NCBI GenBank assembly: GCA_044892525.1
Contig: CM097887.1
Coordinates: 62,744,001-62,808,000, forward strand
Direction of reading: 5' to 3'
DNA length: 64,000 bases
Origin: Schmidtea polychroa
Taxonomy: Eukaryota
The position numbers and the translations under genes were made by a program. Below the pieces are notes generated by a model that was given only the letters and a program-made list of their open reading frames with translations, searched no databases and was not told the DNA's origin. Of the stretch, positions 1-60,849 are shown one piece after another; the stretch's first letter is position 1; each line of letters starts with the position of its first letter.

Positions 1-105
1 TCCAACAATTAATAATCTAAAATTATCAGGAAATACTTTATTATTAAATTTAGATTTATGTCTATTTAAAATTGGTTTCCAAATTATTGGACTTCGTACA
101 TCCAT
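1..105 (-). CDS. Polinton DNA-packaging ATPase (A32/FtsK-HerA family), N-terminus only
   Basis: Not in the ORF track. Manual translation from ATG at 105 gives MDVRSPIIWKPILNRHKSKFNNKVFPDNFRLLIVG, open to the window edge. RLLIVG is the hydrophobic strand that precedes Walker A (GxSGxGKT); the motif itself lies outside the window. Confidence 0.7.
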   Translation of the reverse strand, partial: MDVRSPIIWKPILNRHKSKFNNKVFPDNFRLLIVG

Positions 106-120
106 TTTATTTATTATAAA

Positions 121-732
121 ATGACCTCGAAGAGTTCCTCTACTGAAGAATCTTTGCAAGAATTAATAAATTCAAATAAAAATAAATCAGTAGTAATTGA
201 TGGTAAAAAATATTTTATTGGAAAACATATAAAAGAACAAGTTAGAGCGAAGCTGAAGGGCTCTTCGACTAAAGAAGGCGGCATTCTTCCATTAGCTGCT
301 TTAATACCTGCAATCATTGCCGGACTATCAGGTGCTGCTGGAATAGCTGGAGGAATTGCAACTACAGTTCAAAAAGCTAAAGAATCTCAAAAGACAGACC
401 TAGAAAAAGAAAAACTACAAACTGAAATCGATTCAATGAAGAAGGTAGGGCAAGCTAAGGGAAAAGGCCTCTATCTTAATCCATATGAGGGGACTCTGTC
501 TGAAGGTCAAAAGTCTCAGGGGACTCTGTCCAAGGGAAAGGGTCTCTATCTTGATCCTTATAAGGGTAGAGGTTTAAATGATTTTTAAAAAAATCAAATT
601 TCTACATCTAAATCTTTATCTTCAAAAGATAAAGATGATTTAAAAAAAATATGTAAATCTTTAAAGAATGGATGCCTTTGTAAAACTAAAAATGGTAAAG
701 GTTTATACTTGAAGCCCTTCGAACCCCATTGA
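121..732 (+). pseudogene. Adenovirus pX/mu-like core protein with GKG-LYLxP repeats; internal TAA at 586-588
   Basis: KEGGILPLAALIPAIIAGLSGAAGIAGGIA resembles adenovirus pX MRGGILPLLIPLIAAAIGAVPGIASVA. The frame continues past the TAA as KNQISTSKS...KNGKGLYLKPFEPH* (stop at 732), carrying a third LYLxP repeat. Confidence 0.7.
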
Positions 733-754
733 TACCATTTTTAATACCATAAAA

Positions 755-1600
755 ATGGTATATGAAGAAAGATTAGCACTTTTAAAAAAATTACAATCTG
801 AACAAGATAAATATAATAAAAAAGATACAACTCAACATGCTGAATCTATAATATTAAATGAGGTAATAACACAACAACAGGGGCCAACAATTAAAGCTAT
901 AGAGGGACTTAAAACTATAGAAGCTCCTCTAACCCTTGAACCTAAAGCTATAGAATCTTCTAAAAAGGAATTATCAAGATTAATGGGTTTAAGAAAACGT
1001 AGAAATACTATTGATTTAGAAGAAGATGAATTTCTTTCAAGATTAACACCTCTTAAGACTCCAGTTAATTTTAAAATTAATACATCACTAGCTAAATCAA
1101 TTATACCTACTATAGGTTATGATCCTAGAGGTTTTCAAACAATAACAATTAATAATCAAATATTTTATATATATTTAAATTCAAAAAATAATCCAGCGAT
1201 TATTTCAACAAATACTTTTATGAATAGAGAGCGTGTAGACATTGAACTTTCAGATGGTTTTCATGGATTAATTTCTGGATATCTTCCAGATGATGTTAAG
1301 AAAGAAGAAATTGATAAATATTTAAACTTAATAAAATTAATACATGGTAGTTCTAAAGCAAAACATATTCAAGATTTAAAGAATTATTTAAATAAAAATG
1401 AAAGGGGTTATGTTGTTACAGAGGGTAAGGGGATGCCTGTGGCTGCAAACCCAATCAATCTTTTTATTGAATTAAGAAAACTATTAGCAGCTAAAAAAGC
1501 AGGACATAATAATTTAGATTCTGATATTTTGAAGATTTCTAAAGATTTGTTAAAACAAGGAATAATTTCAAAAGATAAATTTAATAAGTATATAAAATGA
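755..1600 (+). CDS. Conserved Polinton hypothetical protein (281 aa)
   Basis: Intact ORF in the viral cluster. Its C-terminal NPINLFIELRKLLAAKKAGHNN...LLKQGII motif is of a type I recognise from Polinton proteins. Function unknown. Confidence 0.75.
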   Translation: MVYEERLALLKKLQSEQDKYNKKDTTQHAESIILNEVITQQQGPTIKAIEGLKTIEAPLTLEPKAIESSKKELSRLMGLRKRRNTIDLEEDEFLSRLTPLKTPVNFKINTSLAKSIIPTIGYDPRGFQTITINNQIFYIYLNSKNNPAIISTNTFMNRERVDIELSDGFHGLISGYLPDDVKKEEIDKYLNLIKLIHGSSKAKHIQDLKNYLNKNERGYVVTEGKGMPVAANPINLFIELRKLLAAKKAGHNNLDSDILKISKDLLKQGIISKDKFNKYIK

Positions 1601-2082
1601 CTCCTTCAATATTAGATTTTTTAAAAACATTTGGAATAAATGCAAAAACAAATTTTGATTTAAAAGATTATGCAGATTATTTAAATTTAAAAATAAAAAT
1701 ATTAATGAATAATGAATTGAAAGGTCCGAAGGTCAAAGGTCAAAGGGTCACTCCAAAGAATATAATAATCAATTATCAAAATTCAAATGAAAAAGGATCT
1801 CATTGGGTTTGTATATATATGGACGAAGTCCCAATCTACTTTGATTCTTTTGGGATTGAACCCACTAAAGAAGTTGAAGACTATCTGTCCGGAGTAAGCT
1901 CGAAGAGAGACTATACTTTTAATTCTTTACAAGTTCAACCTAATAATACTAAAATATGTGGTATTTTAAGCTTATATGTTTTGTATAGATTGAATAAATC
2001 TCAAGGGACTCTGTCCAAAGGGGACTACTGTTTCACTTCCTTAATCCAAGAAATTTATAATGATTTAAAATCTCTACTATAA
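1597..2082 (+). CDS. Adenain/Ulp1-like (clan CE) cysteine maturation protease
   Basis: GSHW (His), YFDSFG (Asp) and Q...ICG (Gln, Cys) catalytic motifs in the expected order; overlaps the previous stop codon (ATGA). Confidence 0.95.
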   Translation: MTPSILDFLKTFGINAKTNFDLKDYADYLNLKIKILMNNELKGPKVKGQRVTPKNIIINYQNSNEKGSHWVCIYMDEVPIYFDSFGIEPTKEVEDYLSGVSSKRDYTFNSLQVQPNNTKICGILSLYVLYRLNKSQGTLSKGDYCFTSLIQEIYNDLKSLL

Positions 2083-2085
2083 GAA

Positions 2086-2823
2086 ATGGAAGATAATTTA
2101 AAAAAAATGGTAAACATAATGTCAGATAAATATTCAAGAACTTTATCTATAAATTCAAAAGAATCAGACTTTACTATAAATTTTGAAGATTCAATAAAAT
2201 TAGATCAAAATTTAAATTATGAATTAGGTCTATTATGGTTTTGTGCTTATAATACTATTTTTAATATAACTAAAGATATTAACACATTTAGTTATGTAAG
2301 CCCCCCAAAAACGGAGTATAACATAATAATAATAGAACCCGGGGCTTATGAGATAAAAGATTTAAATAATATACTTTCTAAAAAAACAAATGGAGCTATT
2401 GAAATTAAAATAGATTTACCAACTTCAAAATGTATAATGACTTTAAAGAATATAGGACTTAGGTTTCAAAATAATAGTTTCTTTAGAACAATTTTAGGAT
2501 TTACACAAAACCATTATACCACACCTGAAGTTACATCAGAAAATATTATAAAAATAATAAATACAAACACAATAAATATTCATTGCGATTGTATAACAGG
2601 TTCTTATAATAATGGTAAACAAAGTAATATTTTATATTCCTTTCCCTCAAACACAGTTCCTATGGGATATAAAATAGTTGAAAGAATGAATCCTCCAAAT
2701 TATTTACCTTTATGTAGAAAATATATAATGGATATTAATTTTAAAATTCTTAATCAAGAAGGAGAATTGATTGATTTTAATGGAGAAGAGATTTCAATGT
2801 ATTTACATTTGAAACAGGTTTGA
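2086..2823 (+). CDS. Minor capsid protein (penton, single jelly roll)
   Basis: Motifs YNTIFNI, IEPGAYEI, LGF, INIHCDCITGSY.NG, ILYSF, GYKIVE and NQ.G.LIDF.GE are typical of Polinton pentons. Confidence 0.9.
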   Translation: MEDNLKKMVNIMSDKYSRTLSINSKESDFTINFEDSIKLDQNLNYELGLLWFCAYNTIFNITKDINTFSYVSPPKTEYNIIIIEPGAYEIKDLNNILSKKTNGAIEIKIDLPTSKCIMTLKNIGLRFQNNSFFRTILGFTQNHYTTPEVTSENIIKIINTNTINIHCDCITGSYNNGKQSNILYSFPSNTVPMGYKIVERMNPPNYLPLCRKYIMDINFKILNQEGELIDFNGEEISMYLHLKQV

Positions 2824-2847
2824 AGATTCATTTTAAATTATTAATAA

Positions 2848-3780
2848 ATGAGTTCTTATATTCCTTGTAATAGAGGTGGTGGAACAATAAAAACAGGGTT
2901 TAATACAGAAGAAATATTAACTTTAACAGAAAATAAATATATTAATGAAAGAGGTGATTCAATGAAGGGAGATTTAAATTTAAATGGACACAAGATAAAA
3001 GATTTATCTTTACCAATTGATGAAGGTGATGCTGCTAATAAAAATTATACTGATTTAACAACAACAAGAATTGAAAGTTCATTAACAACAAAAATTGATT
3101 CAATGGAATCAAAGCTTAATAATATCGAACAACGATTTAATGATAAATTTGACAAGTTACAAAGTCTGTTAACTGAACAAGTTGTAAAGTTAAATACTAG
3201 TATATTAAATTCTAAAGATAAACAAATTATGAATACTAAATTTAATACAATATATAATATAATAAATGAGATGATTACATCATTTAATAAAAGACTTTCA
3301 AATTTAGAATCTCATACAACACACATTAACACCACACATAGTATTAGAAAAAGAGCTGCTGAATTAGAACAGAATAAAACATTATTACCCCATACATATA
3401 AACATTTTATAGAACCAACTTTAATAACAACAAATAGTAAAGAATGGAGTGTTTTTATGGTTGTAAAGATTATTGATCCTTATTTCTTTTTATTTGATGA
3501 TGATAATGAAAGAATGAAATGGTTTGTGAAATGTGATTATAATAGTAAGTTTGAAAAGGGTGATGTTATAATAAGTGGTTATGATTTAACACATGGATAT
3601 TGGCATGATAAAACTGATTCACATAAAACACATAAAGTTAAAAGTAAGAATATTATTTTTAAAAGCACACTTGTACAATATATAGATTTAATATTTTATG
3701 AAAAAAAGGTTGATGTTGATGAAGTTCGTAAAGCATTGATGGAATTGTATAAAGACATTCTCTCAACAAGAGTCTCTTAA
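2848..3780 (+). CDS. Putative fibre/spike protein
   Basis: N-terminal GDSMKGDLNLNGHKIKDLSLPIDEGDAANKNYTD tail-fibre-like repeat, then a heptad-rich coiled coil and a beta-rich C-terminal domain; lies directly after the penton. Confidence 0.6.
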   Translation: MSSYIPCNRGGGTIKTGFNTEEILTLTENKYINERGDSMKGDLNLNGHKIKDLSLPIDEGDAANKNYTDLTTTRIESSLTTKIDSMESKLNNIEQRFNDKFDKLQSLLTEQVVKLNTSILNSKDKQIMNTKFNTIYNIINEMITSFNKRLSNLESHTTHINTTHSIRKRAAELEQNKTLLPHTYKHFIEPTLITTNSKEWSVFMVVKIIDPYFFLFDDDNERMKWFVKCDYNSKFEKGDVIISGYDLTHGYWHDKTDSHKTHKVKSKNIIFKSTLVQYIDLIFYEKKVDVDEVRKALMELYKDILSTRVS

Positions 3781-3834
3781 AGATATCCGAGTATTGGTAC
3801 CAGATAATAAAATCTTATTTTTTTAATTATTAAA

Positions 3835-4434
3835 ATGGAAGAAGTAAGAGAAGAAAAAGTTTACCCAGAATTGTCATCAGGATATTATTCCCCCAAACCT
3901 TCGGGACCTTCAGCTCCCACAGAACTTGAAATTATGAGAGTAAAAGAATTTAAATCAGAAACCTTACATTTACAAGATTTATTAAAGCATTATAAAAAAA
4001 TTAAAAATAGATGGAATAAAGGGAATACAGTTTTAAAACATATAGGTTATTCTTTAGGATTTGCATCTGCAATATTAACAGTTATTTTACCTATAACTTT
4101 ACCAGTTTTAACACTTGCGCCAGTAATACTTGGAAGTATTTCTGTAGCTGATGGTTTCTTAGCTGAAATAGTTTCATTATCTTATACTTCAAAAAAGAAA
4201 AGTTTATATCGTGAAGTTTGTTTGTCAATAGAATTAGGAATCTCTAAATTATTTTTATTTCAATTAAAAGCTTTGGAAGATGGAATCTTAACTGATGATG
4301 AAATAATGAAATCAAATCAAATAATACAAGATATTAAAAATAATATTAATAGATTAAAAAGTGCTAATGTTATAACTAATGAATATTCTAAAAAAATTAA
4401 ACGGGAGAAATGGTTAAAGAATTCTTATTTATAA
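3835..4434 (+). CDS. Polinton membrane-associated protein (two hydrophobic helices, ALEDGILTDDE motif)
   Basis: Intact 199-aa ORF with VYPEL/PSAP N-terminus, a hydrophobic hairpin and an ALxDGxxxxxE motif of the kind seen in polintovirus proteins. Confidence 0.65.
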   Translation: MEEVREEKVYPELSSGYYSPKPSGPSAPTELEIMRVKEFKSETLHLQDLLKHYKKIKNRWNKGNTVLKHIGYSLGFASAILTVILPITLPVLTLAPVILGSISVADGFLAEIVSLSYTSKKKSLYREVCLSIELGISKLFLFQLKALEDGILTDDEIMKSNQIIQDIKNNINRLKSANVITNEYSKKIKREKWLKNSYL

Positions 4435-4512
4435 AATGGGTGTATTTTTAAAAAAGTAGATCAGGTTGCTATAGTTGCTTAAATTAATTGTCGACATTTT
4501 ATTATTAAAAAA

Positions 4513-7500
4513 TTAAATATCGTTGAAAGCCAACCTTTGAATCATTAATTTATGATCTTTAAATTCTTTATCACTTAGACCTTTTATATATTCAGGATCA
4601 GTATTAAAATATTTAAGTACTAAACATATAGGATTAATAACTTGAGAATATAAAGGCTTCTCGATTTCTCTCTCGGGATAAATGATTTCAACATTATAAA
4701 TATCAAGATCAGTAATCTTTGTATCATATAACTTATTCAACTTTTCTAGATTTTTTATTATCGGTATTAAATTATTTCCTATAGGAAGAGTTGTCTTTAA
4801 ATCACTTAGGATGAATCTCTTATCATCATAATTTGATAATGATACTTTTTGAGATTCTATCAAGTGAATATCATGGTTTTCGCTTTTAATCTGATGCACT
4901 TCATCAATTTTATCTTTATGATTTGGATTCAATGTATCTATATAATCTTGATGAGAAAGACTCTTTGCAACGGATTTCTGTATTCCTTTACATCTGTTAT
5001 CCTTTACAGGTTTTTCTTCTTGTCCCTCTGGTCCTTTAGGGAATATAGGATATTTAAATGAAATAATTTCCTCTTTTTCTGGGGTTTTAAATATAATTTC
5101 TCGGGTTATAAATTCAGGGTTTTAAAATGTTTCGTATGAATATTGTTTAGCACGAATAAATATTCCATTTTCTATAGGAGTAAAAGGTTTTTCATCTTTA
5201 AATGAAAATAATTCTCCAGTTGAATTTATTAAATTTGAAAGTATAGGATTTTCAGCTATATCTCTTTGTAAATCATGAGTTCTTATTGTTAAAAACATTG
5301 AATCTGTATCCATTGCATGCATTGATATATTAGAACCATATATAGGTTGTAAGATGTTATAATATGTTTCATACATTTGTAATGTTGAAAGTTCTAAAAT
5401 TGAAAACCCTATAAATATTGGTTTGTTGTATGTTTTCTCAAAACTCTTTAGTTCTATTGCAGTAAGACTTTCAGAAAATACTTGTGCGTTTTTAAATGTA
5501 GGCTTTCCTAGCATACGATTATAACGCTTAATATCTTTGGCAGTATTAGTTAGGAGTTCAATATGAGTATATTTATCAACATTCTCCATTGTCTTCCCAA
5601 AGACTGAATTGTTTAAAAGTTTATAATTATTATCTTTAAAAAGATTACCTTCTCTTTTTGCAATGTTTCGACATCTAATGTTCTCCTCGATAAAAGCTTT
5701 CATGAATGGCCTCTGTTTAAATCTTATGACACTATGAACTTTTTTTAATATCATACCTCGTGAAAGATAAAATTGGAGGAGTCTATAGTGACAAAGATAA
5801 AACCTTCGATCTGTTTGATCACAAAGAAGTTTCATTGTTAGGGGTTTATCTTGTGAGATTTGCCATTCAGAAAGTTCGTTGATATCAATCTTTCTTCTTA
5901 CAGGAGCTAATGGGAAATATCTTGTTCCTGATTTTATATCATCTGGATATAATAAGTCACATTCTACAAAGTAACCTATTGGAGAATCTTTAGGTGTTGA
6001 AAGTATTTCTTTTATAAGTTCTTTTGATGATTCTATTTCAATGAAATCACCCATTGGTAAATATTGAGTCATAATTCCTGAATATAAAGCTGTTGCATCT
6101 ATATAAAGTATAAATATAGGATTTTTCATTGTTTCTAATATTTCTTTTAATTCCTCATTGTTAATTTTTATATATGGATCAGAGGTCTTTGAAAGCATTC
6201 TGCTAGTAGTTATTGCATTTCTAGCTTTTATTTCTCTATTCCCCATTACTGAAGAGACTCATCCTCTAATGTTTGTTTTAATTAGATTAAACATATCGAG
6301 GTTAGTTAAAAGATCTATAATTTTATCAGCTTCTTCTATATTTGAAGTCCAAATGGTATATAATAAAGTATCCCAAGCTAAAGAGGGTGCTGTTATATAA
6401 TTGTAAGGTTTAAGAACAAAAGATTTTGTAAATTCTTCAAAGCAATCTGCTAGAATATAAACATCCAAGGATAAATACATACTTGTATATTCTCCTAAAG
6501 TTTTACACTTGAATAATTCCCACATTTTATTTGCTCGAGAATATTCTTGATTTGTAATATGATTTTTTTGAAGTTGTGAATAGAAATGTTCTTGGCTAGG
6601 AAGACTTGTTTCATTATATTTTTCAAACGAGTCAACATAGTCATAAGGATATATTCCTTTTGCTAAGCATGTAGGATATTCTTCTGGAGGAATATTATTT
6701 TTTTCCAAGAATTCTCGAGTGATTTTAAAATTTTCTGGTTTCATTGTTTTAGCTATTCCATCTAGAGACATTTGAAGAAAGTTTAACGAGTCTATAAATT
6801 TTAATTTTCCATATTCAACTGATTTATATTTTTCCTTTGTAAGTCCTATAACTTTGAAAGAGTTTTTAGCATTTGCTGCTAAATGTTTAATAAATAGATG
6901 TATGTCATAACCAAAAAGATTATGAAATATAACAGGTACAAATTTAGGAGTATGACAATTAAGATTACAATTTTTATGAGCTGCTCCTCGATAATTATTT
7001 TCCTTTTTTAAATGATCATGATCGAGGACTTTTATATTCGGAGACTCTTCAAATGGTTGTTTACACATCCAACAGTTGGAAGTGTTTTCATATTCTGTTG
7101 TTGTTGATTAGAAATATTTTGAGGATAGTTTGTTTTTAATACTTTAAATATTTCATGTTCTAGATCATTTATACTTTTAGTAAAATGATTCAAGACTTCT
7201 GTTTCTGAAATTCCTCGAAATGTATATTCTCTAGATTCTATGAGTTCAGGATAATTACTTTTAAATAATAATTTATAAGCAGATGGTAATTGTTTAGTTT
7301 TTTTAACACTATTAGGTTTATTCCTTTTTCTTAGAAAGGCTTTCATCCTCTCTGGTTTCATCTTCTCTCCTGAGGAGTTCCAGGAATCCATGAGTTTATT
7401 TTTTTCTATTATTTTTAAATATTGTTTAACCAAATCTTGTTTACGATTTATAAATTCAAAGTCCCCATAAAGCACTCCTACTGTTTGTAGTAAATTTGAA

Positions 7501-8828
7501 AAGTTTTTAAAATACATCTTGGGATAATTAGGCATTTTAATTAAAGCTGGATCATCTTTTTCACAAAATCTTGTATGTTTAATCATAGAGTTTTTAGTTG
7601 TTGAATAATGAAGACATCTTTTACATGTTCCTCCTCCACTAGTTGGATTCTCTGGTGATGTAAAAGCTTGAAAGTTTTTTATTAAAACATAATGTTGATT
7701 ATTTTCTTGTTCCAAGATTAAAAGATATATCTCCCTAGTGTTATCCTGGGGTTCATTATCTCTAACTTCATAATCTGAAATATAAATTGGAATAATTTCT
7801 CTGCAATTAACATGTTTCCCTTTAACACGTTCATAAATATTAATTTTAAGATTATTTAAACTTTCAAATTTTGGAATGTCTTCTAGTTTCATTGGATGTT
7901 TGAATCCTTTGGGAAATATTAATTCATTTTCATATTGTTTGTATTTTGAAACTCTTTGAGGGTTTGATTCTTGAGGGTGTAAATGTGCAAGTATTGACCA
8001 GACGAAACATTTGTTATCATTATTCTGTATGTTTATAACATTTTTAGATTTAAAGGGTGTAGGAATATAAGATTTAGGATTAAGTGGTAATCCTCTCCAA
8101 TAATCAATCACTAAAGTTTGGAAAGAGTTGAATACTAAGTTTGAATCTCCTAATTCATTTTCAACCTCTTCTTGTTTTGCTTCTACTGCTTGAATTATTT
8201 CTTTGATGGTTTTATCAAATCCTTTAGTTGAAAATAAATATTTAAAGGGTATTCCAATTTCAACATCTAAAGGTGTTGTCTTTTCTTCTGCTCCTCGCCA
8301 GTATTTTGCTTTGATTATAATTTTATATTTTATAACATTATACCTTGTCGGTTTATAATTTTTTAAAGCTTCAGTGAAAGAATTTTTAATATTTTTTTTA
8401 TTTTTATTTATATATTCTCCAGGAGTTATAGGTCCATTGATTTCTAATTGAAATTCATCTACATGATTAAAATCATCCCAGTTATATTTTTCTCTTTCAA
8501 CATGATCAGGTTCTCCTTCTGAATGACATTCCTCATCGTCAGAATTTTGTTTTTTATTTTTACATTCTTTTATATGTTCTAAATAATAGAAATTTACTTT
8601 TGTTGAAAAGTTACAGTGAGAACATGTAAATATTTCTCTATTTTTCCCGATACAATTTTCAAAATGTTTATTATATCCAGAATGTAGAAATCTTCCTTTA
8701 CATTTAGGACAAACTTTTGAATTTGTATCATTAAGATTGTTTTCTTTTAATAAATGAGCTTTCGATTTTAAGTGAGAAATTAATCCAGTTTTATTTTTAA
8801 AAACTTTATTACAAATATTACAATTCAT
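4513..8828 (-). pseudogene. polB: Protein-primed DNA polymerase B (pPolB), ~1440 codons, three lesions
   Basis: Four ORF-track pieces join into one gene: YGDFE (ExoI), HNLFGYD (ExoII), KGIYPYDY, DVYILAD (ExoIII), DATALYS (A), KLLNNSVFG (B), MDTDS (C), RAKQY, RCKG, DDKR. Lesions: a frameshift near 7100, TGA at 6259-6261 (RG*VSS, from RGG) and TAA at 5122-5124. Confidence 0.95.
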
Positions 8829-8927
8829 TTTTAGAAAAAAATTTTTTATTGGATATCCTGTTTTGATTTTTTATGTTTTTATATTTATTTTCATAATGTG
8901 ACAGTATAAAAAATAACAAAAATCCAA

Positions 8928-9017
8928 ACCTAGATAGCGCAGTGGGCTAGACCGGCACCGTGGTTCAAATGGATAGCGGTTCAAATCCTAACTGTGGTTA
9001 GTTTTTTTTTTTTTTTT
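8928..9017 (+). ncRNA. Candidate RNA polymerase III small RNA (tRNA-like type-2 promoter with oligo-T terminator)
   Basis: A box TAGCGCAGTGG (8935-8945), B box GGTTCAAATCC (8978-8988), T16 at 9002-9017. It does not fold into a canonical cloverleaf by eye. Confidence 0.6.
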
Positions 9018-9223
9018 AATTTGAAAATAATAGTGTGGGTATCTTAGATTTATATTTTATTTTATTTATTTTTATTTTATTTTATTTTATTTATTTTATT
9101 AATTATTTTATTTTTAAACATAAATATGAAAAAAAAATTATTGAAACGGGTGATGGTGGCGAACCGGTAATTATCGCCACCTGTCTTTCGAACACCCCCG
9201 GATCGATTCTTTAATGTGCACAT

Positions 9224-9511
9224 TTATTTCTCAGTTGTTTTCGGACCTCTTTCGGATTCACTTTCGAATTCATTTGTACTTTCGAGCAGCACGCTTAAAA
9301 CGCCGATGAAATCGTATTCGAGCGAGAAGCGAATAATAAGGTGTGCTGCTATTATCGGATTGATTCTGATGTATGAGTCTGGCCAGCTTGTATATTAGAA
9401 GAGATTTGATAAACGAAAGAGGTTGAAATGATCCGGATCAAAAAAACTGTTGAGGAGACAGTGAAAAAAAAAATACCACTGTCCCCTCAGAGCAGTTTTA
9501 CTATTTTTCAT
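9224..9511 (-). pseudogene. Small Polinton ORF (95 codons) with one internal TAA (9395-9397)
   Basis: Starts in the same TAAATG context as the other viral genes: MKNSKTALRGQWYFFFHC...SNLF*YTSWPDSYIRINP...GPKTTEK*. No recognisable family. Confidence 0.3.
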
Positions 9512-9584
9512 TTATTTTTTAATTTATATAATTTAAAATCAATAATCTGATAAAGATCAACCCCGGAGTTTGATTGCGATCAAA

Positions 9585-9844
9585 AGTAGTGTGTATATAG
9601 CCCTATCCCAAATAGCCCTCTAACTTTTTCATAATGCCATTTTCTTTTCTATTCTCTTTTTAGTTTGAAGCTTTTGAGTTTGAGGCTTTAAAGATTAAGG
9701 GTGGTTATTGTTTAAAATATGGGGTTAAAATACTATAAAAACATAGGTTTTATGTTGTTTTTCTAATGGTTTAAGCGTAATGGAGGTATGTTTTTGTTGG
9801 GAGGGCTGTTTGGGTTGGGTATATATACACACTACTACTACTAC

Positions 9845-9845
<1 letters not shown>
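9585..9845. repeat. Inverted Polinton-type termini 261 bp apart
   Basis: AGTAGTGTGTATATA at 9585-9599 is the exact reverse complement of 9822-9836; weaker homology continues for about 40 nt more. Confidence 0.8.
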
Positions 9846-9877
<32 letters not shown>

Positions 9878-9910
9878 CAACAATACTAATAACGATAATA
9901 ATAATAATAA
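9846..9910. repeat. (AAT)n/(AAC)n microsatellite abutting the Polinton terminus
   Basis: Directly visible simple repeat. Confidence 0.95.
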
Positions 9911-9934
9911 ATGTAAATTAATATTTTTTTAAGA

Positions 9935-10600
9935 TACCTATGGGGGGAGGGGTCATTTATGAAAATGTACAATTTATAGTTTTAAATATAATATAAGTTA
10001 AATATATATTAAGATAAGCTAATTTAGTATATTTAGGTGGTAGTTGATGACTATATGATTTTGAGGGGGGTCATTCATAAAAATTTACAATTTACATTTT
10101 TAAATATAATATAAGTTAAATATGTATTAAAATAAGCTAATTTAGTATATTTAGGTGGTAGGGGATGACTATATGGTTTATGGGGGTCTTTGATGAAAAT
10201 TTTTCAACTATAATTTTAAAGGTAATCTAAGTTAAGTATATATATTAAATAGTCTAAATTAGTGTATCAGGTAGTGGTTAATGGTTATGTGAATTAAGGG
10301 GGGTCATTTATCGAAATTTTCTAAATTTATATCGTAAAGGTAAGGTATTAATGTATTTAGACAACAATTAATGGTTAGGTGACCTGAGGAATTATTAAGG
10401 TGGATAACTGTACATATATAAGTTAATTTATTACTATATATATTGTTCTCGACAAATGTATAGTTTGAGGGGGGTACTTATGAAAAAATGTAAATTATAC
10501 TTTTATAAGTTTCAGATATATAAGTTAGATTGTGAATCTGGATATTTGTTTCGACGATTGCGTAACTTGGGGGGGGGGGTATTTATAAAATATTTACCAC
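9935..10600. repeat. Degenerate tandem repeat, ~116-bp unit, 4 clear and 2 weak copies
   Basis: GGGGTC(A/T)TT recurs near 9950, 10067, 10183 and 10299, with a shared TAAGCTAATTTAGTATATTTAGGTGGTAG in the first units. Confidence 0.85.
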
Positions 10601-10639
10601 TTATTATAGATTATATTTTTATCGCTAACGTAGTTTATA

Positions 10640-11100
10640 TTTTATACTTTTATGACCAAATTCAGATTATAATTTATAGTCTTTCAGCTAATATAAATTT
10701 ATAACTTATATTTTTATGAAATTAAATTTATAGTTTATGTTTTTAAAGCTATTATAATTTTATAATTTATACTTTTGAGGTTATAATTTATATTTTATGA
10801 AGTTAAGTTAAATTTATAGTTTATATTTCTAAAGCTAATATAATTTTATAATTTATACTTTTATGAAGTTAAGATTATAATTTGTACTTTTATAATTAAC
10901 TTAGAGTTATAATTTTTATCGTCAATATAAATTTGTAATTTATAGTTTTAAGAAGTTAAATTTATAATTTATACCTTTATAACTAATCATAATTTATATT
11001 TTGAAGAAATTAAATCTATAAGTATAATTCATATTTTTATGAAATTGAGAGGATAATTTATACTTTTGTGGGTTACGATTTGTATTTTTATAGTTAGTTT
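10640..11100. repeat. AT-rich minisatellite-like array
   Basis: Recurrent TATAATTTATA(C/G)TTTT and GAAGTTAA units. Confidence 0.7.
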
Positions 11101-12729
11101 AGAGTCTATTCAATTTAAAATCCAAGTCTTGCTGATACGCATGTCGAACACCTTTATGAATACTATCACTACTAAATCAATCATTTTTAAAAAATCTTTA
11201 CTTTACACTATTACTAGAAAATTGATTTAAGACTTATAAATCTAGATTCGACAAACGTATAGGTAGAGTTGGTTCTTGATGATATTTAACCGTCTACATT
11301 AATTGTGAATTGTAGAGTTGTGATTAATTTAGGTCTGAGATCTACTCTGTTTATTACCCCTAGTGTATTGTATTGTGATGATTTTGGATGTAGATTTTAA
11401 CTATGTAAGTTATTCATGTATTGAAAGTCGGGAAGAGTGTTTGCTTTCGCGGCCCCACTGTGACCACTACGACAAACCTTACTGTTGTGTGGTAAGTCAA
11501 CCCTTTACGGCTGACCTATAATAAATAGGTAGAGTCAGACGGAGGATTTCATCGACTTAACTCCATGGCAGAACCATGGAGTGGTGCGACCTCCGAATGA
11601 CCTGAACAAAAAAAACTCAATAATATTGATAAGTGCGTGCCAGGCAGTGGCCTTTAATCATTGTGAGCTGCGTACCCATCAATGATAAAGTGCATAGGTG
11701 CAGGGTTGGCTGGGATCTCGCTTCAAAATCAATGATAACCGACGATCTCACTCAAACCTACATTTCTATAGTTAAAAAGAAATAATGAAAACAAGGTTTC
11801 AATAATAATAATTTATAATTCACAATGAAATCGTCCTTACCTACAATATCAGAAAAATCAAAACCAAAAATTTGGCATAAGAGTAAAAATATTCATTTGC
11901 ATTTTTTTTTCTTGAAAAGTGACGAAATGTTTTAGTTTATATAGCCTCTGTTTGACGTGTAAGTATACATGCGTGCATTGATGCAGTAAAACAAATTCAG
12001 ATTATTTTAATTCTCGAACATTCGATTTTTAATTTTTATCGATTTTGATGGCGATTTTTCAGTAAGAATTTTTGTTTTTATTTTTGAAATTTTATTTTCG
12101 AATTATTTTTTATTAAATTTGCGTCCATGATGGATTTCAGCATTTCCAGAACATTCCATGCTAAATTTAATCTATTTCTTATTTTTAAATTGTTTTTTAT
12201 GATTTCTTTTCTAAAATATTTATTTTTTAAACTAAAATATTTATTTTTTATAAATTTTATTGGGTCGTTTGGCGGTCATGATGGATTTCGCCATTTTTAT
12301 GAATTGTTCTGGATTTTTATTAAATATCGATATAATTTTCTTTACGTAAGATTTTATGAAGATTTTCTTTAATTTTCTTTTTTAATTTTTACTAATCGCC
12401 TTTATTCGAATTTGTTTTTTGTTGTTTTATGTCTTTCGGTTATATTTGAGTAAGTTTTCGTGTAATACTTCTTGCTCATGTTTTATTTTATTTTTAATTC
12501 AGATGTTTTATTTTTGGGTATATTATCTCTCTATTATCATTGTTTACTTGGTGTTTTATATATTTTTATTTAAGTAAACTTAATGCTGGGTATGCGTGTT
12601 GTGTACTGACACATTTCGTCCCATTCCTAACTTTGGGTTCAGAAATCAGTTCTAGCCCAACATTATTATAATTTATTGTAAAATCAACTTTCTATAGTAA
12701 GTCTCCAACCAACTCACGATGGAAGAAAT

Positions 12730-30433: not shown

Positions 30434-32252
30434 GGGATCCGGATAAAACACCGAAACAAAAAACTCGAAATTAAAACTTCGAAAACAAAAACACCGAAAA
30501 ATATAATTTCGAAATGCAAAAATATCGAAAACATAAACATCGAAAGCATTTTTATTATTTAAAAAAAAAAATTGTATGTAATTGATGTAACAATTTTAAC
30601 ATTTGTTGACTTTTAAAACTATTAGGCCGCTTGAAGTTCTAAATTATGGGCTAAACCTCTTAAATAATCAAAGTGTTTCGAGTTACATATGACTCTACTA
30701 TAGACTTGATTCTTCTGGCAGTTTCGATATAAATTCTTTTTGATGGTGGTGGATTAATTCCTGACGTTAATTGTTCCAATTTCAATCGAGTCAGGCCTTC
30801 TTCTTTCTTTAAAATTTCAAGAAAACGCCAGAAATTTGGGTTACTTGATGCCATCAATGAACTAAAAGATCGATGCCATCCTTCAATCGAGTTATTTGTT
30901 TTAGGAAGATCATCGATTGATGCTTCGTAACAATTCCAAAGCGATATCGGAACTCTTGGTGATCTTCTTCCTGTTGCAGATCTTGTTGGTCTTCCAATCC
31001 ACTGATCCTCGATATAATCGATAAGTGGACAAAGCAATTGTTCGTTTTCTCTGAAGAAATCAGAGTCTAAAAGTACATTGAAACACTCAATGACATCTTC
31101 TGGCACAAAAGCTAAAGCTGCAAGTTGTCGCAAATATAAAGAAAAATCAGGATCCTGTATATCCTTATATTTGTCGCAAATTGGACTGTTTCTTTGTATT
31201 TCTCTCCATATACATTGAGAAAAATGGAAGAAACAACCACGAATTCTTGTATCGGGGAAGCAATCTTTGATTGAATTAATAATTGCTTGTTCAAAATCCG
31301 ATAACACAGATACTGGTGATAGAGCAGGCTTTATTTGCTTTAATTGGCGAAAAACTTTAGTATAAGTTTCTTGTCTTTTGTTAGGCAAAAGAGCATAAAC
31401 CAAAGGTATCACTGTTTTATCGATAATACAATGTACCGTAAACATCTGAAAAAATAAACTTGGAGCAGTTTTAAATGTTCCATCAACGTATAAATGCGGA
31501 GATGATACTAATGTATCAATTAATCGACTTGTGCTGAACATCACAATTCTATCTGCGCCATCATTTGAATCGTAGATTACAAAATCATCTCCGATTGCAG
31601 TTTTTCTTAAGTTTTCGGGTATAAATAAATCCGAAAGTGATGTCGGCGAAGGCAATATCCCTGATGCTTGATTTCTTTGTCTTCTGATAGTTCTTTTGAT
31701 AGAATCTATCTTCGGCAACTTGCTACAAACAGCTTGAGACGATGTTGACGTTGCCGCTGCAATAATTTGAAGCGGTGTTTCGGTGGAAGTTTTTGAACTT
31801 TCTTTTATTTCAGAATAAAGCTCTTTAGCTTTAATAACGGAAACTTTTGGAACATGATTATGTTCTCCTATTTCTTTTTCCACTTGATTATCAACAGTGT
31901 GGCATCTTCCTTTGCACTTAAATGTCAAATATTCCACACATTTCCAATAAGTTTTTTCGTTATGTTGCCTATCTTTTTGATAAAGAAAACTATTATATAA
32001 AAGTTGATTAACACCTTTTTGACTTTTAATAAATTTAATCTCCATTTTTATAATTGTAATCAATATTTAGCTAATTTAATAATTTAACTATGAAGAAATG
32101 AAAGGAAACGGAAACAATTTAAAGGGACTTTTTATTAATTTTTCGATATTTTGTTTTCGATATTTTTGTTTTCGAAATTTTTTCTATTCGATATTTTATT
32201 TTCGGTGTTTTTGTTTTAGTTTTTTTAATTTTCGGTATTTTGTCCGGGATTC
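30434..32252 (-). mobile_element. Apparently intact autonomous Mutator-like (MULE) DNA transposon, 1819 bp
   Basis: Perfect 9-bp TSD GGTAAGTTT (30425-30433 and 32253-32261); ~110-bp TIRs built of AAAA(C/T)..CGAAA subrepeats. Confidence 0.95.
30660..32063 (-). CDS. MULE transposase with N-terminal FLYWCH domain (467 aa)
   Basis: FIKSQKG..L.YNSFLY..YWKC..C...HNH (FLYWCH); VDGTF, LSDFE, CFFHF and TNNSIEGWH catalytic motifs; no stops. Confidence 0.95.
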   Translation of the reverse strand: MITIIKMEIKFIKSQKGVNQLLYNSFLYQKDRQHNEKTYWKCVEYLTFKCKGRCHTVDNQVEKEIGEHNHVPKVSVIKAKELYSEIKESSKTSTETPLQIIAAATSTSSQAVCSKLPKIDSIKRTIRRQRNQASGILPSPTSLSDLFIPENLRKTAIGDDFVIYDSNDGADRIVMFSTSRLIDTLVSSPHLYVDGTFKTAPSLFFQMFTVHCIIDKTVIPLVYALLPNKRQETYTKVFRQLKQIKPALSPVSVLSDFEQAIINSIKDCFPDTRIRGCFFHFSQCIWREIQRNSPICDKYKDIQDPDFSLYLRQLAALAFVPEDVIECFNVLLDSDFFRENEQLLCPLIDYIEDQWIGRPTRSATGRRSPRVPISLWNCYEASIDDLPKTNNSIEGWHRSFSSLMASSNPNFWRFLEILKKEEGLTRLKLEQLTSGINPPPSKRIYIETARRIKSIVESYVTRNTLII

Positions 32253-37900: not shown

Positions 37901-40900
37901 TTCATTCTAGTTAATTTTAGATTTATTGTCAAAAAATATTTATTACTATTCTTATCTATTGGCTGCCTTGAAATCTTATTGAAAGCAGCGATTTTAGCTT
38001 TCTGGTCATGAAATACTTTGCCAAAGATTATTTTATCGATTAGGCCATCTAAAAAAAATTAACTTACAATATAAAAATTTTTCTTTAATTTTTTTAAACC
38101 TACCGATTTTTTCATATAATTTGGTTTCTAGTATCAACCTTTCTCCTGCAATTATTTATAAGTGACCATTTGAGATTGTCATATAAAATAAAATAGGATA
38201 TTAAAATATTATTTATAACAATAATAATAATAATATTAAATATTATTAATTCAAATATCTCTAACTATAAAAATTTGTCAGTTGATTACATACGGAAAAA
38301 CGAATTCAGTCCTGAATTCAATACCAGGGCCAATTTCCAAGGCTGTACGGCATTGCATTATTCAGTTCTGTTGGATGATTATGAAATGACATCATTGTTA
38401 TTGAATAATAGTAATGAGTTCGTTGGTGAACTTACCGATTTGATAACGTAATTCCAGACGCGGATCCAACTATTGAAAATGATAAAGGCTATACTCCTAT
38501 ACAATACGCTGTATCAGATTCCTTAAGAAAACTTTTGCTATCCAAACAAGAACAGGTTTTCCAAATCATATAAAAATATTTTATAATTAAATCTTTTTAT
38601 TTGTAAATAATCATTTAAAATGAATTTTAAAATTATCCATACGGGGATTTGGCCCGGTTATCGTTATAAGTTTCGCTATTAATTGGAATATTATAAAATA
38701 TGACCACATGACAGTTTCATATAATTGCTATACATTTAATTATAATATTAAAAATCACTACTTAAAGATACGTTTTACGATATATTAAGAAAGGTAGGAT
38801 AGAAAAAACTAGATATTATAGATTTATTAAATAAATTACAAAATTTTATTATTATGAAAACTTTTTTTCCAATTTCACCAATTTTTTCCATTGAATTTTT
38901 TAAAAACAGAGCTTGAAGACTATAAATCAGTAATTTATCGATGTTTTTTGATACTCACGAATTTTCGACACTGCTTTTTTTCCTTTCGCTTGAAAAAGGC
39001 AGTGCCGAAAATTCGTGAATATCAAAAAAAATCGATATATTACTGATTTATAGTCTTCAAACTCTCTTTAAAAAAATTTAATTATTAAAAATTTTTTTAA
39101 TTTATGAATATTGTGAATAATTAATGAATATTGTCGACCAAAGCAATTGACCAATATATTTTTAAATCTTAAAATTTTGTTAATTAAAATTTATCCTACC
39201 AGACGAGTGTAGGAAAACTGTCAAAATATATCGTAAAACGTATATTAAGTGGTGTTTTCTAATTATTGTTGAATTATATTGTCTGCTTTGTTAAATTAGC
39301 CAATAGCAGTCAAATAAATGCATGCATTTGAGATTTTACTATAAATATCAAGTTACCTGAAAATCATTATTAAAAAATTGAAATTGAGTAACTTCATTTT
39401 CACGTAAATGGTGACTCACCTCAACTGGTGTGCACACCAACGTGAATTATAGAGGTTACTAAATTTCGGAATTGGGTGTATCTTTAATGATATCATTTAA
39501 TGATATTGATGAAATAGTTATTCATAGGGTTTATAAGTTAATAATTTTTATAAACTAAATATATTTTTGTAACTAAACAGTACTTAACAGAAGTAGTGGG
39601 AAATTATTTTGAAAGAATATTATCCTTATTTCAGAGCACAAATTAAAAAGTCAACTAGGCATCCAATATGTTGTTAATCAATAAAGTTTCANNNNNNNNN
39701 NNNNNNNNNNNNNNNNNNNNNNNNNNNNNNNNNNNNNNNNNNNNNNNNNNNNNNNNNNNNNNNNNNNNNNNNNNNNNNNNNNNNNNNNNNNNNNNNNNNN
39801 NNNNNNNNNNNNNNNNNNNNNNNNNNNNNNNNNNGTCATGAAATATAGGTAAATATTAATTACTCTCCTCTACCGACTCCCTCATTTCGCATATCGAATT
39901 AGGTATACCTATTTTTACCCGAAAATCTAGTGTTAAATGCTCAAACAATATTATATTCAAATTCTAAAAATAATTTAATATTGAATAATTAAAAAATTTA
40001 TCATTTTTGAATTGTTATATCTATAAAATTATAAAATAAGAAATAGTTCAAAATATATATTCCAATAAATAAGTATTATTGAAACAATTTTAAATTATGT
40101 TAACAATAAAAACTTTTGAATTATAATATATGGATTAAATATTAATTTAATCCATATAACATTAATACTCCATGACTCAAATCTGTAAATTATTATAAGA
40201 TAATTGAAATTTTTTTTGAAATGAGTTTAAGAAAAGAAACTTATGTTAAATTTTTAATTTAATGACAATTAAAAACATCAACTATATTGAAAATTATAAT
40301 GTGAAAATGACATTTTGAACTGAAAATTTTGCATTTTTAAATAATTGATAGATAGAAAAACCTGTAAGTTTCATGATTTCAGTGTTCATCATTCGATAGT
40401 TTTTACTGTTCCAGGCAAACATTAGGTAAACAATGATTTTCTTTTTTATAGTTAGTATCCTTATACAATTCTAAAATAATTCTTTATTTCCTACTATTAG
40501 TCGAGACCACCGACACAGATGGTTGTAATGAACTCTATAGGTTTTTACCTTAAGTATACTTAAAATAAAGAAAACGATGTTAAGTTTCACTAGAATAGTA
40601 ATCTTTATATCCAAATTGACTTACTATTAAAATTAGAAGAAGGCTAATATTTGTAGGTTAAATATTTTAATTCTGTATAATTTTCTCTGTCTGAATACTG
40701 TCAACTGGTTGTATGTATAAATGAATAAATATACAACAATAATACAAACAAAACATGGTTATTAATCTAAATTTCTTTAGTTTTTGAAATATAAAGCAGA
40801 AAAGGAATTAGAAGAACGACGCAGATTTCCTTTGGAACATCGTTTAAGAAAGCACATTGTTGGCCAGGAAGCAGCTATTGATCTAGTTGCAGCTAGTACA

Positions 40901-43900
40901 AATAAATTTCTGAGAGATTTGTATTTAAAACTTAATTCTATAGCAATTCGTAGAAAAGAAAATGGTTGGACCGATGATGAACATCCATTGGTATTTTTAT
41001 TTTTAGGGTCATCGGGAATAGGTAAAACTGAAACCGCCAAGCAAATTGCAAGTTATTTACACAAGAATGATTTGAAAAAAGGATTCATTCGGATTGACAT
41101 GTCTGAATATCAACAAAAACATGAGGTATTTTCGATTTGATTAAGATTTTTGATTCACTAATATTTAATAAGTCGGTTTTCTAATTGGCTACTTTCAATT
41201 AATTATCTTATATATCTTTAATGATTAAAAACCTAAATTTGTTATATTTAAAAATCACTGATCTATCAATATGTCAATTTTATTTTAGTATTCAATGATA
41301 TACAAATCTATATTAACCATTCAGTTATGCAAAAATGAATAATAACACGAAATGAACAATCAAATGAATAACACATCTTGTAGTCCTAGTAAATCTAATT
41401 CTTTAATTCAACAGAACCATGAGCGAGTTCAAATATTCATAGAAGATAACTCCTCGGAGATCAGTGCACCAGAAATATGTCTAGTGGGATTAATTCTTCG
41501 GTAAAGAGGTTACCGTAGGGCAGCATATAATATTATCAGTTGGATAAAATAATTTTGATCAAAAAAAAGCAGTGCCGAAAATTCGAGAATATCAAAAAAC
41601 ATCGATATGTTGGTTTATTGGGTTGGTGATAATATTTGTAAGTTAAAATTTTTACTCTGACTCCAAGCGTGTCTTTGACTGACCCACAATTAACAATTAA
41701 CACTGGAAACTTTATTGAATATCACCAATATTTTCACAATGATACAAATGGCTCAACAAGCTAACTGTTGATTATACAATGCTTATTATAACACTATGGT
41801 GAAGAATAGCACACGCGTATAACCTTGATTTGACAAATCTCTCACAACTGAGGAGTGTAACAATTGGTAATTTAACGAGTTGTTTTTTGATTTGGATTTA
41901 CTCTCCGAACTTTACTCTGTTATCAACTGAATAAGCTCCTGCCTCTTATACCTTTATTTATGCTTTCTTTTCAAATTCTCCAAATAAATGTCGTCGTATT
42001 ATTTCAAGTATTCTGTCCTTTGACGCAATATTCTGTCGCAACTCTGTTCCACAATATTCTGACTCAAACGTTTCCTCGCAAATGTTCTCCTTTAACTATT
42101 CTGTAGTAAATATTGTTCTTCAACTGTTCTTCTCTTAATTGTTCTGTCCGCTTCTGCTGTGCTTCCTCCTTTAATACCTCGTCACTTTGTGGCACTTCAG
42201 TTTATCTTTAATTTCCCATTTTTTCCAACATAATTTCCCAACTTTTTCCTACAACCGAGTTTTATTTGACAGTTGTCAAGATATTTTCTAGTTTTTCCTT
42301 TTTGGTAGTCCCTAGACAAAGTTATTTAAGAAATAATAATAAATTACTTAGGAAAAATAAATAAATAAAATTAAGAACGCAATACCCAAGATTTCCAGGG
42401 GAATTATCAGCATGACAACCTCGATAAATTTTGTAGCAACATTTCGACTCCTTGTAGATGACGAATTAAATTTAACCATAAATGATGAGCAAAGAACCCT
42501 ATAATATTAACCAATTACTTAGTGAAATTGCCACATTGGTCGAAGAGACAAGCAAGAAAATTAAACGTAAAATGTTGAAGATTTTGAAGAAGAGAAAAGT
42601 TTTTAAAATAGTAACGCAGTTTCCCTTTAGATTAAGCAAAGGATAAATTATAACAGCTTGAAAAATAAAGTGTGATTTTTAATAATAATAAATCTATTGT
42701 ACTTTGATCAATAATACTATTAACCTAAAATATAACATAGATTATTGTAATTTGCATGTAAAGGCAGCTCAGAAATTTGTACTATATAATAAAATTAATG
42801 TTTAAATAGAAAAAACAAATCAAAAACGAAGGATTTTACCGATTATTTATTTAGAATAATTTTAAGCGAAATTTTGATTGAAAAACTATTTCTAAATAGG
42901 TTGCTAAATTCATTGGATCTCCTCCAGGATATGTTGGCCATGAACAGGGTGGCCAATTAACGAAAGCATTAACTGATTGTCCACAAGCAGTGGTTTTGTT
43001 TGATGAAGTGGAAAAAGCTCACCCTGATGTTTTGACAATTTTGCTTCAGTTATTTGATGAAGTTATTGATTTAATTTGAGTTTTCTTCTTGATAAATCTA
43101 TCAAGGGCCGAATGACAGATGGTAAAGGTACAACCATTGAATGTAAGAAAGCAATATTTATTATGACATCAAACTTGGCCAGCGAAGAAATAGCTAATCA
43201 CGCTCAAGATCTTAGAATGGCTAACAAATCAAGTAAGTGTATTGGTCAATATTATTTTGTCATTATTTACTCATAAGACTCTGGGAGTGTGGAAATTGGA
43301 CGGGAATTTAAAGAGAAAATTATGAGACCTATTTTAAAAGTTTGATTTTATACATATTTATTAAGGGGATTTCATTATCGAAACTTTACCGCTCATTTAG
43401 AGACATTTCCTTCGAGATGAGTTTCTTGGTAGAATAAATGAAATGGTCTATTTTCTTCCATTTTCCGATTCAGAATTATCTCGGCTTGTTAAAGCGGAAT
43501 TAGAAATCTGGAAAGAAAGAGCCCTTAGAAAACATGGAATTGAATTAACCTGGGATAATAGTGTTGTTGATTATTTGGCAGATGGTTACAATATATATTA
43601 TGGTGCCAGGTCTATAAAATATGAGGTTTGTTATGTTCATTTTATTTCAATTTCATCGAAAATTACCTTAGCCATATCGAATGATACATAATTTAAATAA
43701 AATAATTGGATAAATTCATAAAAACTCAATTTTTAAATTGATCTACAATAATAATTATTATTTTATTTTCTAAATTATTTATTAATTTTATTATTTTTAT
43801 TGACTTTTTATTTTTATTTATAATTATATTACTATTGATTAATTTATTATTATTTTTATTATTAATTATCAATATAAATATTGATTAATTTATTATTATT

Positions 43901-59757: not shown

Positions 59758-59936
59758 CTAAATAAGAAAATATAAATTAAATAACATTAAAAAAAGTAAT
59801 ATTAATTTCAATGTTTAATAAACTAAATGGAACAAAAATCAATTAAAAAAGTTAAGTATTGTGAGGTGTTGAATATTTCAGATAATTTGTCAGAATAGTT
59901 TAAAGCGAATTTCGGCCAAAAAATAATTAAAATTAA

Positions 59937-60176
59937 CCCTCTCCGTATATTTGTCGAATATATTCGACATTAAAGCAAGATGTCACTTCCAGTTTCATAG
60001 GCCATTGCAAAAGTACATCGTTTTCACCGCACATTATGAAAAAGAAAACAGAAAGATGTGTCCCTTTTCCAGCTTTGAATCCATCGGGATGAAGCTGAAG
60101 GCACATTTTGTAACCGTTTTTGTGGGAATAGAACGGGTCACTATAAATATCAGCATTATTTTTTACACGGAGAGGG
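59937..60176. mobile_element. piggyBac MITE, 240 bp
   Basis: TTAA|CCCTCTCCGT ... ACGGAGAGGG|TTAA. Confidence 0.92.
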
Positions 60177-60849
60177 TTAAAAATAAGTTTTAATTGTAAA
60201 ATATAAATTTAAATAAAAAATTTTAATTCGATTTGAATTGAATTTTAATATTGAATTCTTCTGACAAATTGTATTGAGATTGTTTCAAATAACGCCAAAA
60301 TGTTTGTTTGAATATTAAACAATATTGTGATAATGAGTTCAAATACTGAAAGTATTTTTCAAAACAACTTAAACGATGTTCTAGTAACTTATAACAAGTA
60401 TAATAAATGATTTTCATTTGTTAGTATCAGCAAACCTTTTCGGTCGTGGATAAAATTTACCTAAGATTAGATTTTTTAAAACTTCTAGCTGATCAGTGGT
60501 AATTTCATATGAAAGCAATCAAAACAAAATTTTTTTAATCCTAACTAGGCCTTACAAAAATAATTGCTGGGAAAATTTTCTATTTTATATGCAGTTGTTG
60601 ATTGATTTGGAAACTGGTTTACAATTTCGGAGTGAGTAACATAAAATTATGTTTTGGGTCACCTTAGGCCCTAAACATTTAATATTGTTATAGTTCAATC
60701 TGGTTGTATTAATTTTATATTTTAATTGTGATTAAATATAATAAACTTCAATAATTATTGTTGTATTTAAATATTGAAATTAAAGAGTTTTTGAATTAAA
60801 ATTTATTCTTGCAATTAGTGAAATTTGTAATTTATATTCGTAATTTTTC

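Follow-up and report, generated by a model that had tools for sequence, protein, structure and literature searches.

Results

The Polinton at the locus

The window, by which we mean the whole stretch of 64,000 nucleotides analysed, holds near its left end the right arm of a Polinton whose left arm lies in the adjoining stretch to the left (L031). The pPolB gene (5122..8828, minus strand) is broken in three frames (8828-7032, 7068-6259 and 6246-5122); the ORF that opens at 8828 is the N-terminus of the protein, with 34% identity to an intact relative from a metagenome (E 8e-82), and the last of the three ORFs has a PF03175 match. L031, into which an LTR retrotransposon has inserted, carries genes for a double-jelly-roll capsid, a PLA2-like protein and an rve integrase, so that the carrier combines pPolB (PF03175) with the integrase and the capsid (PF00665, PF21738), the gene set of Polintons and adintoviruses. 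Candidates for the packaging ATPase and the cysteine protease (L031:9964-9308, window 1597-2082) had no Pfam match at E 0.01. The retrotransposon occupies L031:4675-9377 and has gag-like and protease-like ORFs, reverse transcriptase, RNase H and integrase.

Polintons end in AGT repeats at their terminal inverted repeats and make a target-site duplication of 6 bp. The carrier has terminal inverted repeats with AGT-repeat ends; the right one, of about 0.94 kb, spans 8903..9836 and is mirrored at L031:1146-202, to the left of the window. Its outermost part is a terminal hairpin segment (9585..9836) with 36-nt arms at 9585-9620 and 9801-9836 that are 86% complementary, each with an AGTAGT end motif, forming an imperfect hairpin of about 250 bases that may bear on Polinton replication. 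Outside the repeats, the mirror symmetry of this copy continues into its flanks over another 2.35 kb (99.8% identity), which includes a tandem repeat of about 118 bp; the flanks make up a larger inverted repeat around the Polinton (window 9837-12190 against L206:7852-10000 plus L031:1-201). Elsewhere in the window there is an uninterrupted FLYWCH-MULE transposase ORF of 461 aa (30660-32045, minus strand), together with exon-like open frames at 40781-43691 (plus), 45524-45820 (minus) and 59933-60208 (minus), whose motifs suggest a CLPB-type ATPase, a fragment of PRP8 and a TRAF/MATH domain.

The island between the polymerase gene and the element end

As originally predicted, a GC-rich island of about 75 nt (50.7% GC against 26-29% in the surroundings) lies 100 bp, measured to 8928, from the pPolB start on the opposite strand. 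Direct reading of its plus strand gives an A box (TAGCGCAGTGG, 8935-8945), head to head with the pPolB ATG at a distance of 107 bp, a B box (GGTTCAAATCC, 8978-8988) 32 nt past the A box, and an upstream copy of the B-box core (GGTTCAAAT, 8962-8970) that lies within a 16-17-nt tandem unit. There is a single strict B box in the 64-kb window, and a looser A+B+T pattern has one site in positions 1-10000 and none in 10000-64000. The predicted Pol III terminator is a T-run at 9002-9017 (plus strand), and if the start is placed at A8918 by the 17-nt distance to the A box, the predicted Pol III transcription unit, hereafter unit A, would run from the A after C8917 into the T-run (8918..9005, plus strand) and give an RNA of about 88 nt rather than the 78 nt first proposed. 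The T16 run had been given as the terminator; it is present but peculiar to the window copy; T8-T9 accounts for 60/65 of the runs counted from other copies. That the island is not a normal tRNA gene holds: ARAGORN called 0 tRNA genes on it, with no cloverleaf, and Rfam gave no family match up to E 10.

Unit A belongs to the innermost 115 bases of the terminal inverted repeat and faces outward. It is therefore carried twice per element, pointing away from pPolB at the right end and away from the capsid gene at the left end, where its mirror lies at L031:1114 (minus strand), inside the repeat. Since the island is inside the terminal repeat, its adjacency to the polymerase gene, on which the comparison with adenoviruses had leaned, is incidental. 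Beside the left-end unit, an ORF of 89 aa (L031:1368-1099, minus strand) without Pfam match ends within the A box, and small ORFs ending in the A box recur at 70-98 aa in many copies.

Occurrence in sister copies

The exact A-to-B pattern has 869 matches genome-wide, against 0 for the reversed control, and among the 100 of these 869 that were listed many form minus/plus pairs 11-14 kb apart. The best 29 other DNA matches to unit A all fall inside a Polinton terminal repeat (29/29). In a sample chosen by capsid gene and blind to the island (40 of at least 97 capsid-gene matches), at least one A/B/T unit stands upstream in 37/40 copies and an A-type unit in 36/40; units A and C look interchangeable in their placing, since 22 of the 38 copies measured have one or the other at a distance of 45-64 bp from the capsid ATG. 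The outcome that the original prediction had named as contrary to it, an island absent from sister copies and matching a dispersed SINE or tRNA pseudogene, is thus not what the genome holds. A tRNA-derived SINE was considered and rejected, given that the 29 best other unit-A matches and the 20 sampled loci of the paralogous unit B (20/20) are in Polinton end sequence; where a SINE would have an A-rich or LINE-like 3' tail, there is a sense-strand T-run 13 nt past the B box.

Paralogous units and their likely tRNA origin

Two further outward-facing units are found in the left arm, unit B (L031:1605-1525) and unit C (L031, about 1858-1770), and a distant lineage whose pPolB DNA is about 68% identical carries the unit types A2 and A3. 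Scored as a tRNA, unit B reaches 26.9 bits with anticodon GCA, just below the Rfam cut-off of 29, and its middle resembles the host tRNA-Cys (L093) beyond the boxes (shuffles as good in 0/2000 local and 4/2000 global alignments). The unit-B pattern has 3751 matches in the genome, of which 994 are probably host tRNA-Cys genes that fit the same pattern, leaving about 2,750. The host's tRNA-Cys, tRNA-Asp/Gly and 7SL genes are organised as long tandem arrays with periods of 281, 398 and 593 bp (G000:C1:269250638 onward, G000:C1:157887453 onward and G000:C2:31932512 onward, G000 being the genome assembly), and pattern matches number 994 for the tRNA-Cys and 1671 for the tRNA-Asp/Gly arrays.

In its middle, unit A has no likeness to host tRNA-Cys (974/2000 shuffles reach the score) and gives no signal against tRNA-Asp, these being the two host tRNAs compared. 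Its A-box start lies 43 nt from the B box, the same as in host tRNA-Cys, and it shares letters with units B and C just past the A box. When the five paralogue types are aligned with tRNA-Cys, the A-to-B spacing is kept and the T-run follows 12-14 nt past the B box; 15/20 of the columns invariant across the five lie in the boxes, a figure that is partly circular because the units had been found by their boxes. From the spacing, the paralogy and the letters shared with B and C, unit A is likely to be tRNA-derived as well. Leaders, middles and tails are mixed freely among the variants, which have a mosaic look.

Conservation of the promoter signals

For the distant lineage, the sequence lying upstream of the unit was used to retrieve 30 loci, with the leader as anchor; units were found in 18/30. 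In a set of 19 segments (18 distinct), 4/19 of which come from two query copies originally found by boxes, the A box and the B box each match the window at an identity of 0.975 and the T-run at 0.96, against 0.52 in the middle and 0.46 in the tail. The gap between box and non-box identity was reached by 0/20000 column permutations, a test that stands for a few lineages and not for 18 independent cases, since the rows share ancestry; in the younger set the gap is smaller (422/20000). Between the boxes the units differ widely, the middle being deleted, replaced, or furnished with one to three B-box cores: the 16-17-nt tandem unit is present in 1, 2 or 3 copies among the variants, with a single core in L160, L167 and L175 and a triple one in L176.

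These patterns bear out the claim of an element-encoded Pol III-type unit, which is found in sister copies with boxes and terminator kept while the rest changes, and they support a Pol III unit of putative function. A working Pol III promoter has probably been retained by selection. The same signals bear on the idea of a site bound by TFIIIC without transcription, of the ETC or COC type, for which the duplicated or triplicated B-box core speaks, as does the tendency of ETC sites to lie between divergent genes, where they can be boundaries (PMC3395662). ETC sites are, in that source's description, defined by an extended B box (PMC3395662), whereas here the A box and the T-run are equally strict, and we regard a TFIIIC-only site as very unlikely. 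The insulator that had been offered as the second option of the original prediction comes nearest to the best explanation, but retention of the A box and the T-run speaks for a complete transcription unit over a TFIIIC-only site.

Copies and relatives without the unit

Three of the 40 capsid-selected copies (L134, L135 and L145) have an unbroken capsid frame and short ends without the unit, their capsid gene running nearly straight into the terminal hairpin segment. The 12/30 unit-less loci of the distant lineage divide into 6 with short ends (two near-identical) and 6 that are cut or interrupted. The unit is therefore dispensable, and because intact copies have short ends without the cassette, the latter is a module gained or lost within the family. 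The cassette-less copies retain a similar terminal hairpin of different sequence.

Among unrelated Polinton families of the same genome, no tRNA-type unit was found in 7 elements extended to their ends (with inverted repeats in 6), nor upstream of pPolB at 20 loci of other families, in which pPolB is, however, internal. A weaker A/B/T-like match with longer spacing occurs near the ends of three elements of one unrelated family (L183:796; L189:858 and 1867; L192:9181). Scans of viral contigs found no relatives. Fifteen metagenome capsid relatives (31-51% identical) had no unit by pattern, a single weak relaxed-ARAGORN call (L108) and no unit by Rfam in the 11/15 scanned; they say nothing on units, because none of the contigs reaches a terminal repeat. 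In one related metagenome Polinton, a hairpin between converging genes (L098:5436-5515, minus strand) matches Rfam mir-754 with 48.6 bits (E 4.3e-7), below the family cut-off of 84, and the mir-754 miRNA family may derive from Polintons; genome searches for mir-754 and mir-2 were blank but uninformative.

The cassette-less copies raise the question of an unused passenger, that is, a captured tRNA gene or SINE head whose apparent conservation would come from few lineages and from exchange between repeats and paralogues. Such copies did integrate with unbroken capsid frames, six or seven elements that belong to unrelated families of this genome do without a tRNA-type unit, and the variants look like mosaics. 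A passenger would hardly explain, on the other hand, why five otherwise dissimilar paralogues keep boxes, spacing and T-run, why box identity is 0.975 against about 0.5 alongside, or why the lineage with the cassette dominates the sample (37/40), and we judge this account quite unlikely.

RNA fold of unit A

Unit A folds at -19.4 kcal/mol, no better than its shuffles (z -0.07), and mean z values, from up to 14 variants per type, are -0.2 (A1), +0.35 (A2), -0.8 (A3), +0.1 (C) and -1.6 (B). RNAalifold returned zero consensus pairs over 40 variants. The two stems described in the original prediction, GACCG 8950-8954 with TGGTT 8961-8965 and AACC 8927-8930 with GGTT 8996-8999, could pair on paper, but the minimum-energy fold lacks the central one and neither is conserved: across the two, change on both sides affects 2 pairs, where shuffles give 2.2 (385/500). 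Their cells are paired in 75.2%, a value matched by 6/500 shuffles and one that relatedness alone can raise, and the terminal AACC/GGTT is paired in 62.8% of cells. The minimum-energy fold of the window copy is likewise paired in 71.9% of cells against 71.8% when shuffled, with no excess of two-sided change. There is no shared RNA fold in unit A, and the covariation sought among the variants did not appear.

VA RNAs are about 160 nt long, with the apical stem, the central domain and the terminal stem as three conserved domains of a stable fold and a GGGU-ACCC pair in the central one, and their origin from tRNA has been hypothesised (PMC7589676). The likeness lies in the intragenic A and B boxes, the oligo-T terminator, the residence in a DNA virus and the presence of more than one paralogue per genome (PMC7589676), whereas unit A has a predicted length of about 88 nt and no conserved fold, sits twice per element in a terminal repeat, and has neither GGGU nor ACCC within 8918-9005. 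Judged on its sequence, unit A resembles a VA gene in its promoter and not in its product. The VA-like mechanism proposed at first finds no support in the fold statistics or in the replacement or deletion of the middle among paralogues. VA RNAs are abundant Pol III products that inhibit PKR, a vertebrate kinase, or load Exportin 5 and Dicer.

A structured block downstream

The terminal repeat holds a second candidate, block D, a strongly folding stretch of 356 nt (9148-9503, plus strand) 130 bases downstream of unit A, with a fold of -125 kcal/mol and z of -5.9 on the plus and -3.8 on the minus strand. Its homologues in the distant lineage, 63-71% identical, mostly have z between -4 and -7 (8 shuffles each), and one that bears deletions has z -0.1. 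In a 7-bp helix, four pairs are changed on both sides between lineages, and the helix is fully paired in 20/25 ungapped rows; over the whole block, the RNAalifold covariation term is small (-0.47) and two-sided change is seen in 3/68 pairs. Inverted repeats can stay matched through DNA repair alone. Rfam had no family for block D.

Within the block, motifs that resemble an A box (9157-9167) and a B box (9200-9210, both plus strand) are 43 nt apart, as in unit A. Compared with host tRNA-Asp, which was chosen after looking, the head of the window copy was equalled by 0/2000 shuffles and those of three others, weakly, by 21, 161 and 164/2000. Derivation from 7SL was rejected (232/500 shuffles equal the window copy, and 13/500 the best variant). 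A T4 about 90 nt into the block could end the transcript early in most rows. Past the B-box-like motif there is a self-complementary 8-12-mer that is lineage-specific in sequence and palindromic in 24/26 rows; kissing-loop motifs are self-complementary in the same way. With 356 nt and a stable fold, block D is nearer to a VA RNA in shape than unit A, and it is the better candidate for a structured RNA, possibly one made by Pol III.

Sequencing-run contigs over the unit

Of 12 sequencing runs, none is on record as RNA; two runs of the same study, X1 and X2, are RNA by guess. Contigs of both cover unit A and are unstranded. Those of X2 all fall within L031:1005-1134, several stopping at 1131, the predicted start, and leave L031:975-1004 and 1135-1274 without cover, where X3 and X4 continue; position 1131 is a variant branch point too, and an X3 contig also stops there. 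Cover extends about 30 nt beyond the T-run, and one X1 contig spans the unit, the small ORF and the capsid start. The stops do not amount even to a hint of transcription. Run X10 had no matching contig and X7 had capsid pieces only.

This last X1 contig would suit a role in Pol II transcription, with the unit as the 3' end of the small left-end ORF or as part of an inward promoter for the capsid and polymerase genes. In keeping with it, the 89-aa ORF, found again in many copies, ends in the A box, there is an ATTAAA after the T-run, and in many copies the A box is just 45-64 bp away from the capsid start codon. Upstream of the right-end copy, though, there is no such ORF, many left ends keep the unit without the ORF, and the letters that are conserved coincide exactly with the Pol III boxes, all of which makes a Pol II role highly improbable.

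The contigs of the two runs that are RNA by guess are also among the points in favour of an abundant short RNA that, like VA RNAs or TMERs, would serve in trans, either as a decoy or by giving rise to small RNAs, for example by its 5' triphosphate or 3' oligo-U end, and that would need no conserved fold. The A box and the terminator are kept along with the B box, the length is near-constant across paralogues, and templates number hundreds to thousands. What weighs against it is that the variants have no stable or common structure, that the middle is replaced or deleted in many of them, that leaders, middles and tails are interchanged so freely, and that the 13-nt tail is too short for a pre-miRNA stem ahead of the terminator. 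An action in trans is accordingly rated as unlikely.

Discussion

The reading we prefer is that of a Pol III unit serving in cis at the element ends of this high-copy Polinton family, by open chromatin or as a barrier, to which, taken as a whole, we give a probability of roughly 0.45. It is favoured because the signals and the position of the unit matter and its content does not. TFIIIC would bind the A and B boxes, TFIIIB would occupy the AT-rich stretch that separates the unit from the first gene, and the RNA of about 88 nt would be made by Pol III largely as a by-product; the loaded TFIIIC and Pol III may then maintain open chromatin or a barrier between the element end and the first gene of each arm. 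Evidence against such a role is that the units always face outward, as opposed to the orientation-independent barrier of yeast. In addition, piRNA silencing begins on the element's own transcripts, for which reason a barrier against spreading would not stop it. In favour of the cis role, Polintons of a planarian are described as targets of nuclear-PIWI chromatin silencing (PMC8532177).

The closest precedents for a cis role are the yeast tRNA-gene barriers and the ETC and COC sites, in which Pol III signals serve as chromatin boundaries, often between divergent genes (PMC2040200, PMC3395662); in fission yeast, the tRNA-gene barriers are reported to require both TFIIIC and Pol III (PMC2040200). 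Those are host loci with demonstrated binding and barrier activity (PMC2040200, PMC3395662), whereas the present units belong to a mobile element, and their binding and barrier activity are predicted. A likeness is also found in the retrotransposons Helenus, Ajax and Cassandra (TRIMp3), which have non-functional tRNA- or 5S-derived sequence in their terminal repeats, conserved around the A and B boxes (PMC10886601). They are non-autonomous LTR retrotransposons whose RNA template is presumably transcribed from the Pol III promoter (PMC10886601); a Polinton, by contrast, copies as DNA, and its unit is directed outward and would terminate after about 88 nt. Membership in TRIMp3 (Helenus type, with PBS and PPT) was rejected, the carrier being a DNA element with pPolB, capsid and integrase.

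TMERs combine a tRNA-like head with the pre-miRNA stem-loops that follow it in one transcript. Unit A was rejected as a TMER since it ends 13 nt past the B box, and the layout would suit block D. The TMERs of murine gammaherpesvirus 68 resemble the present system as a cluster of tRNA-type units with type 2 Pol III promoters in a DNA virus (PMC8223928). In that description TMERs are known to be transcribed, whereas the units here are predicted, and unit A has no cloverleaf and no stem-loop of miRNA length; TMER promoters have a triplicated, overlapping A box (PMC8223928) and unit A a duplicated B-box core.

In a bolder version, a Polinton lineage would have captured host tRNA-Cys and tRNA-Asp genes and made of them a Pol III cassette in its terminal repeats, with short units like unit A and with block D as the real effector of the VA or TMER kind, and by this means escaped small-RNA silencing and expanded to thousands of copies. 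This chain of events strikes us as unlikely, but if true it would be the first small-RNA system in Polintons, independent of adenoviruses.

As to novelty, Pol III units are known both in DNA viruses, namely VA, EBER and TMER (PMC8223928), and in terminal repeats of retroelements, namely Helenus (PMC10886601). The carrier shares with Polintons, Mavericks and adintoviruses pPolB, the rve integrase, the double-jelly-roll capsid, the PLA2-like gene and the terminal inverted repeats (PMC8502044). The main text of the adintovirus paper names predicted tRNA genes once, where a figure flags them in MELD viruses with other replicases, and has neither VA RNA nor polymerase III (PMC8502044). In the open-access full-text literature, Repbase and supplements lying outside its scope, we found no report of a small-RNA gene or Pol III element in Polintons, in agreement with what the original prediction had supposed.

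Within a single genome some sister lineages have the cassette and others lack it, which opens its role to direct testing. Polintons stand between transposons and adenovirus-like viruses, and through a tRNA-derived cassette in the terminal repeat elements of this sort could draw on host Pol III, as VA RNAs and TMERs do in parallel. Active units would have added thousands of Pol III or TFIIIC sites to the host genome (about 2,750 for unit B and at least 869 for unit A).
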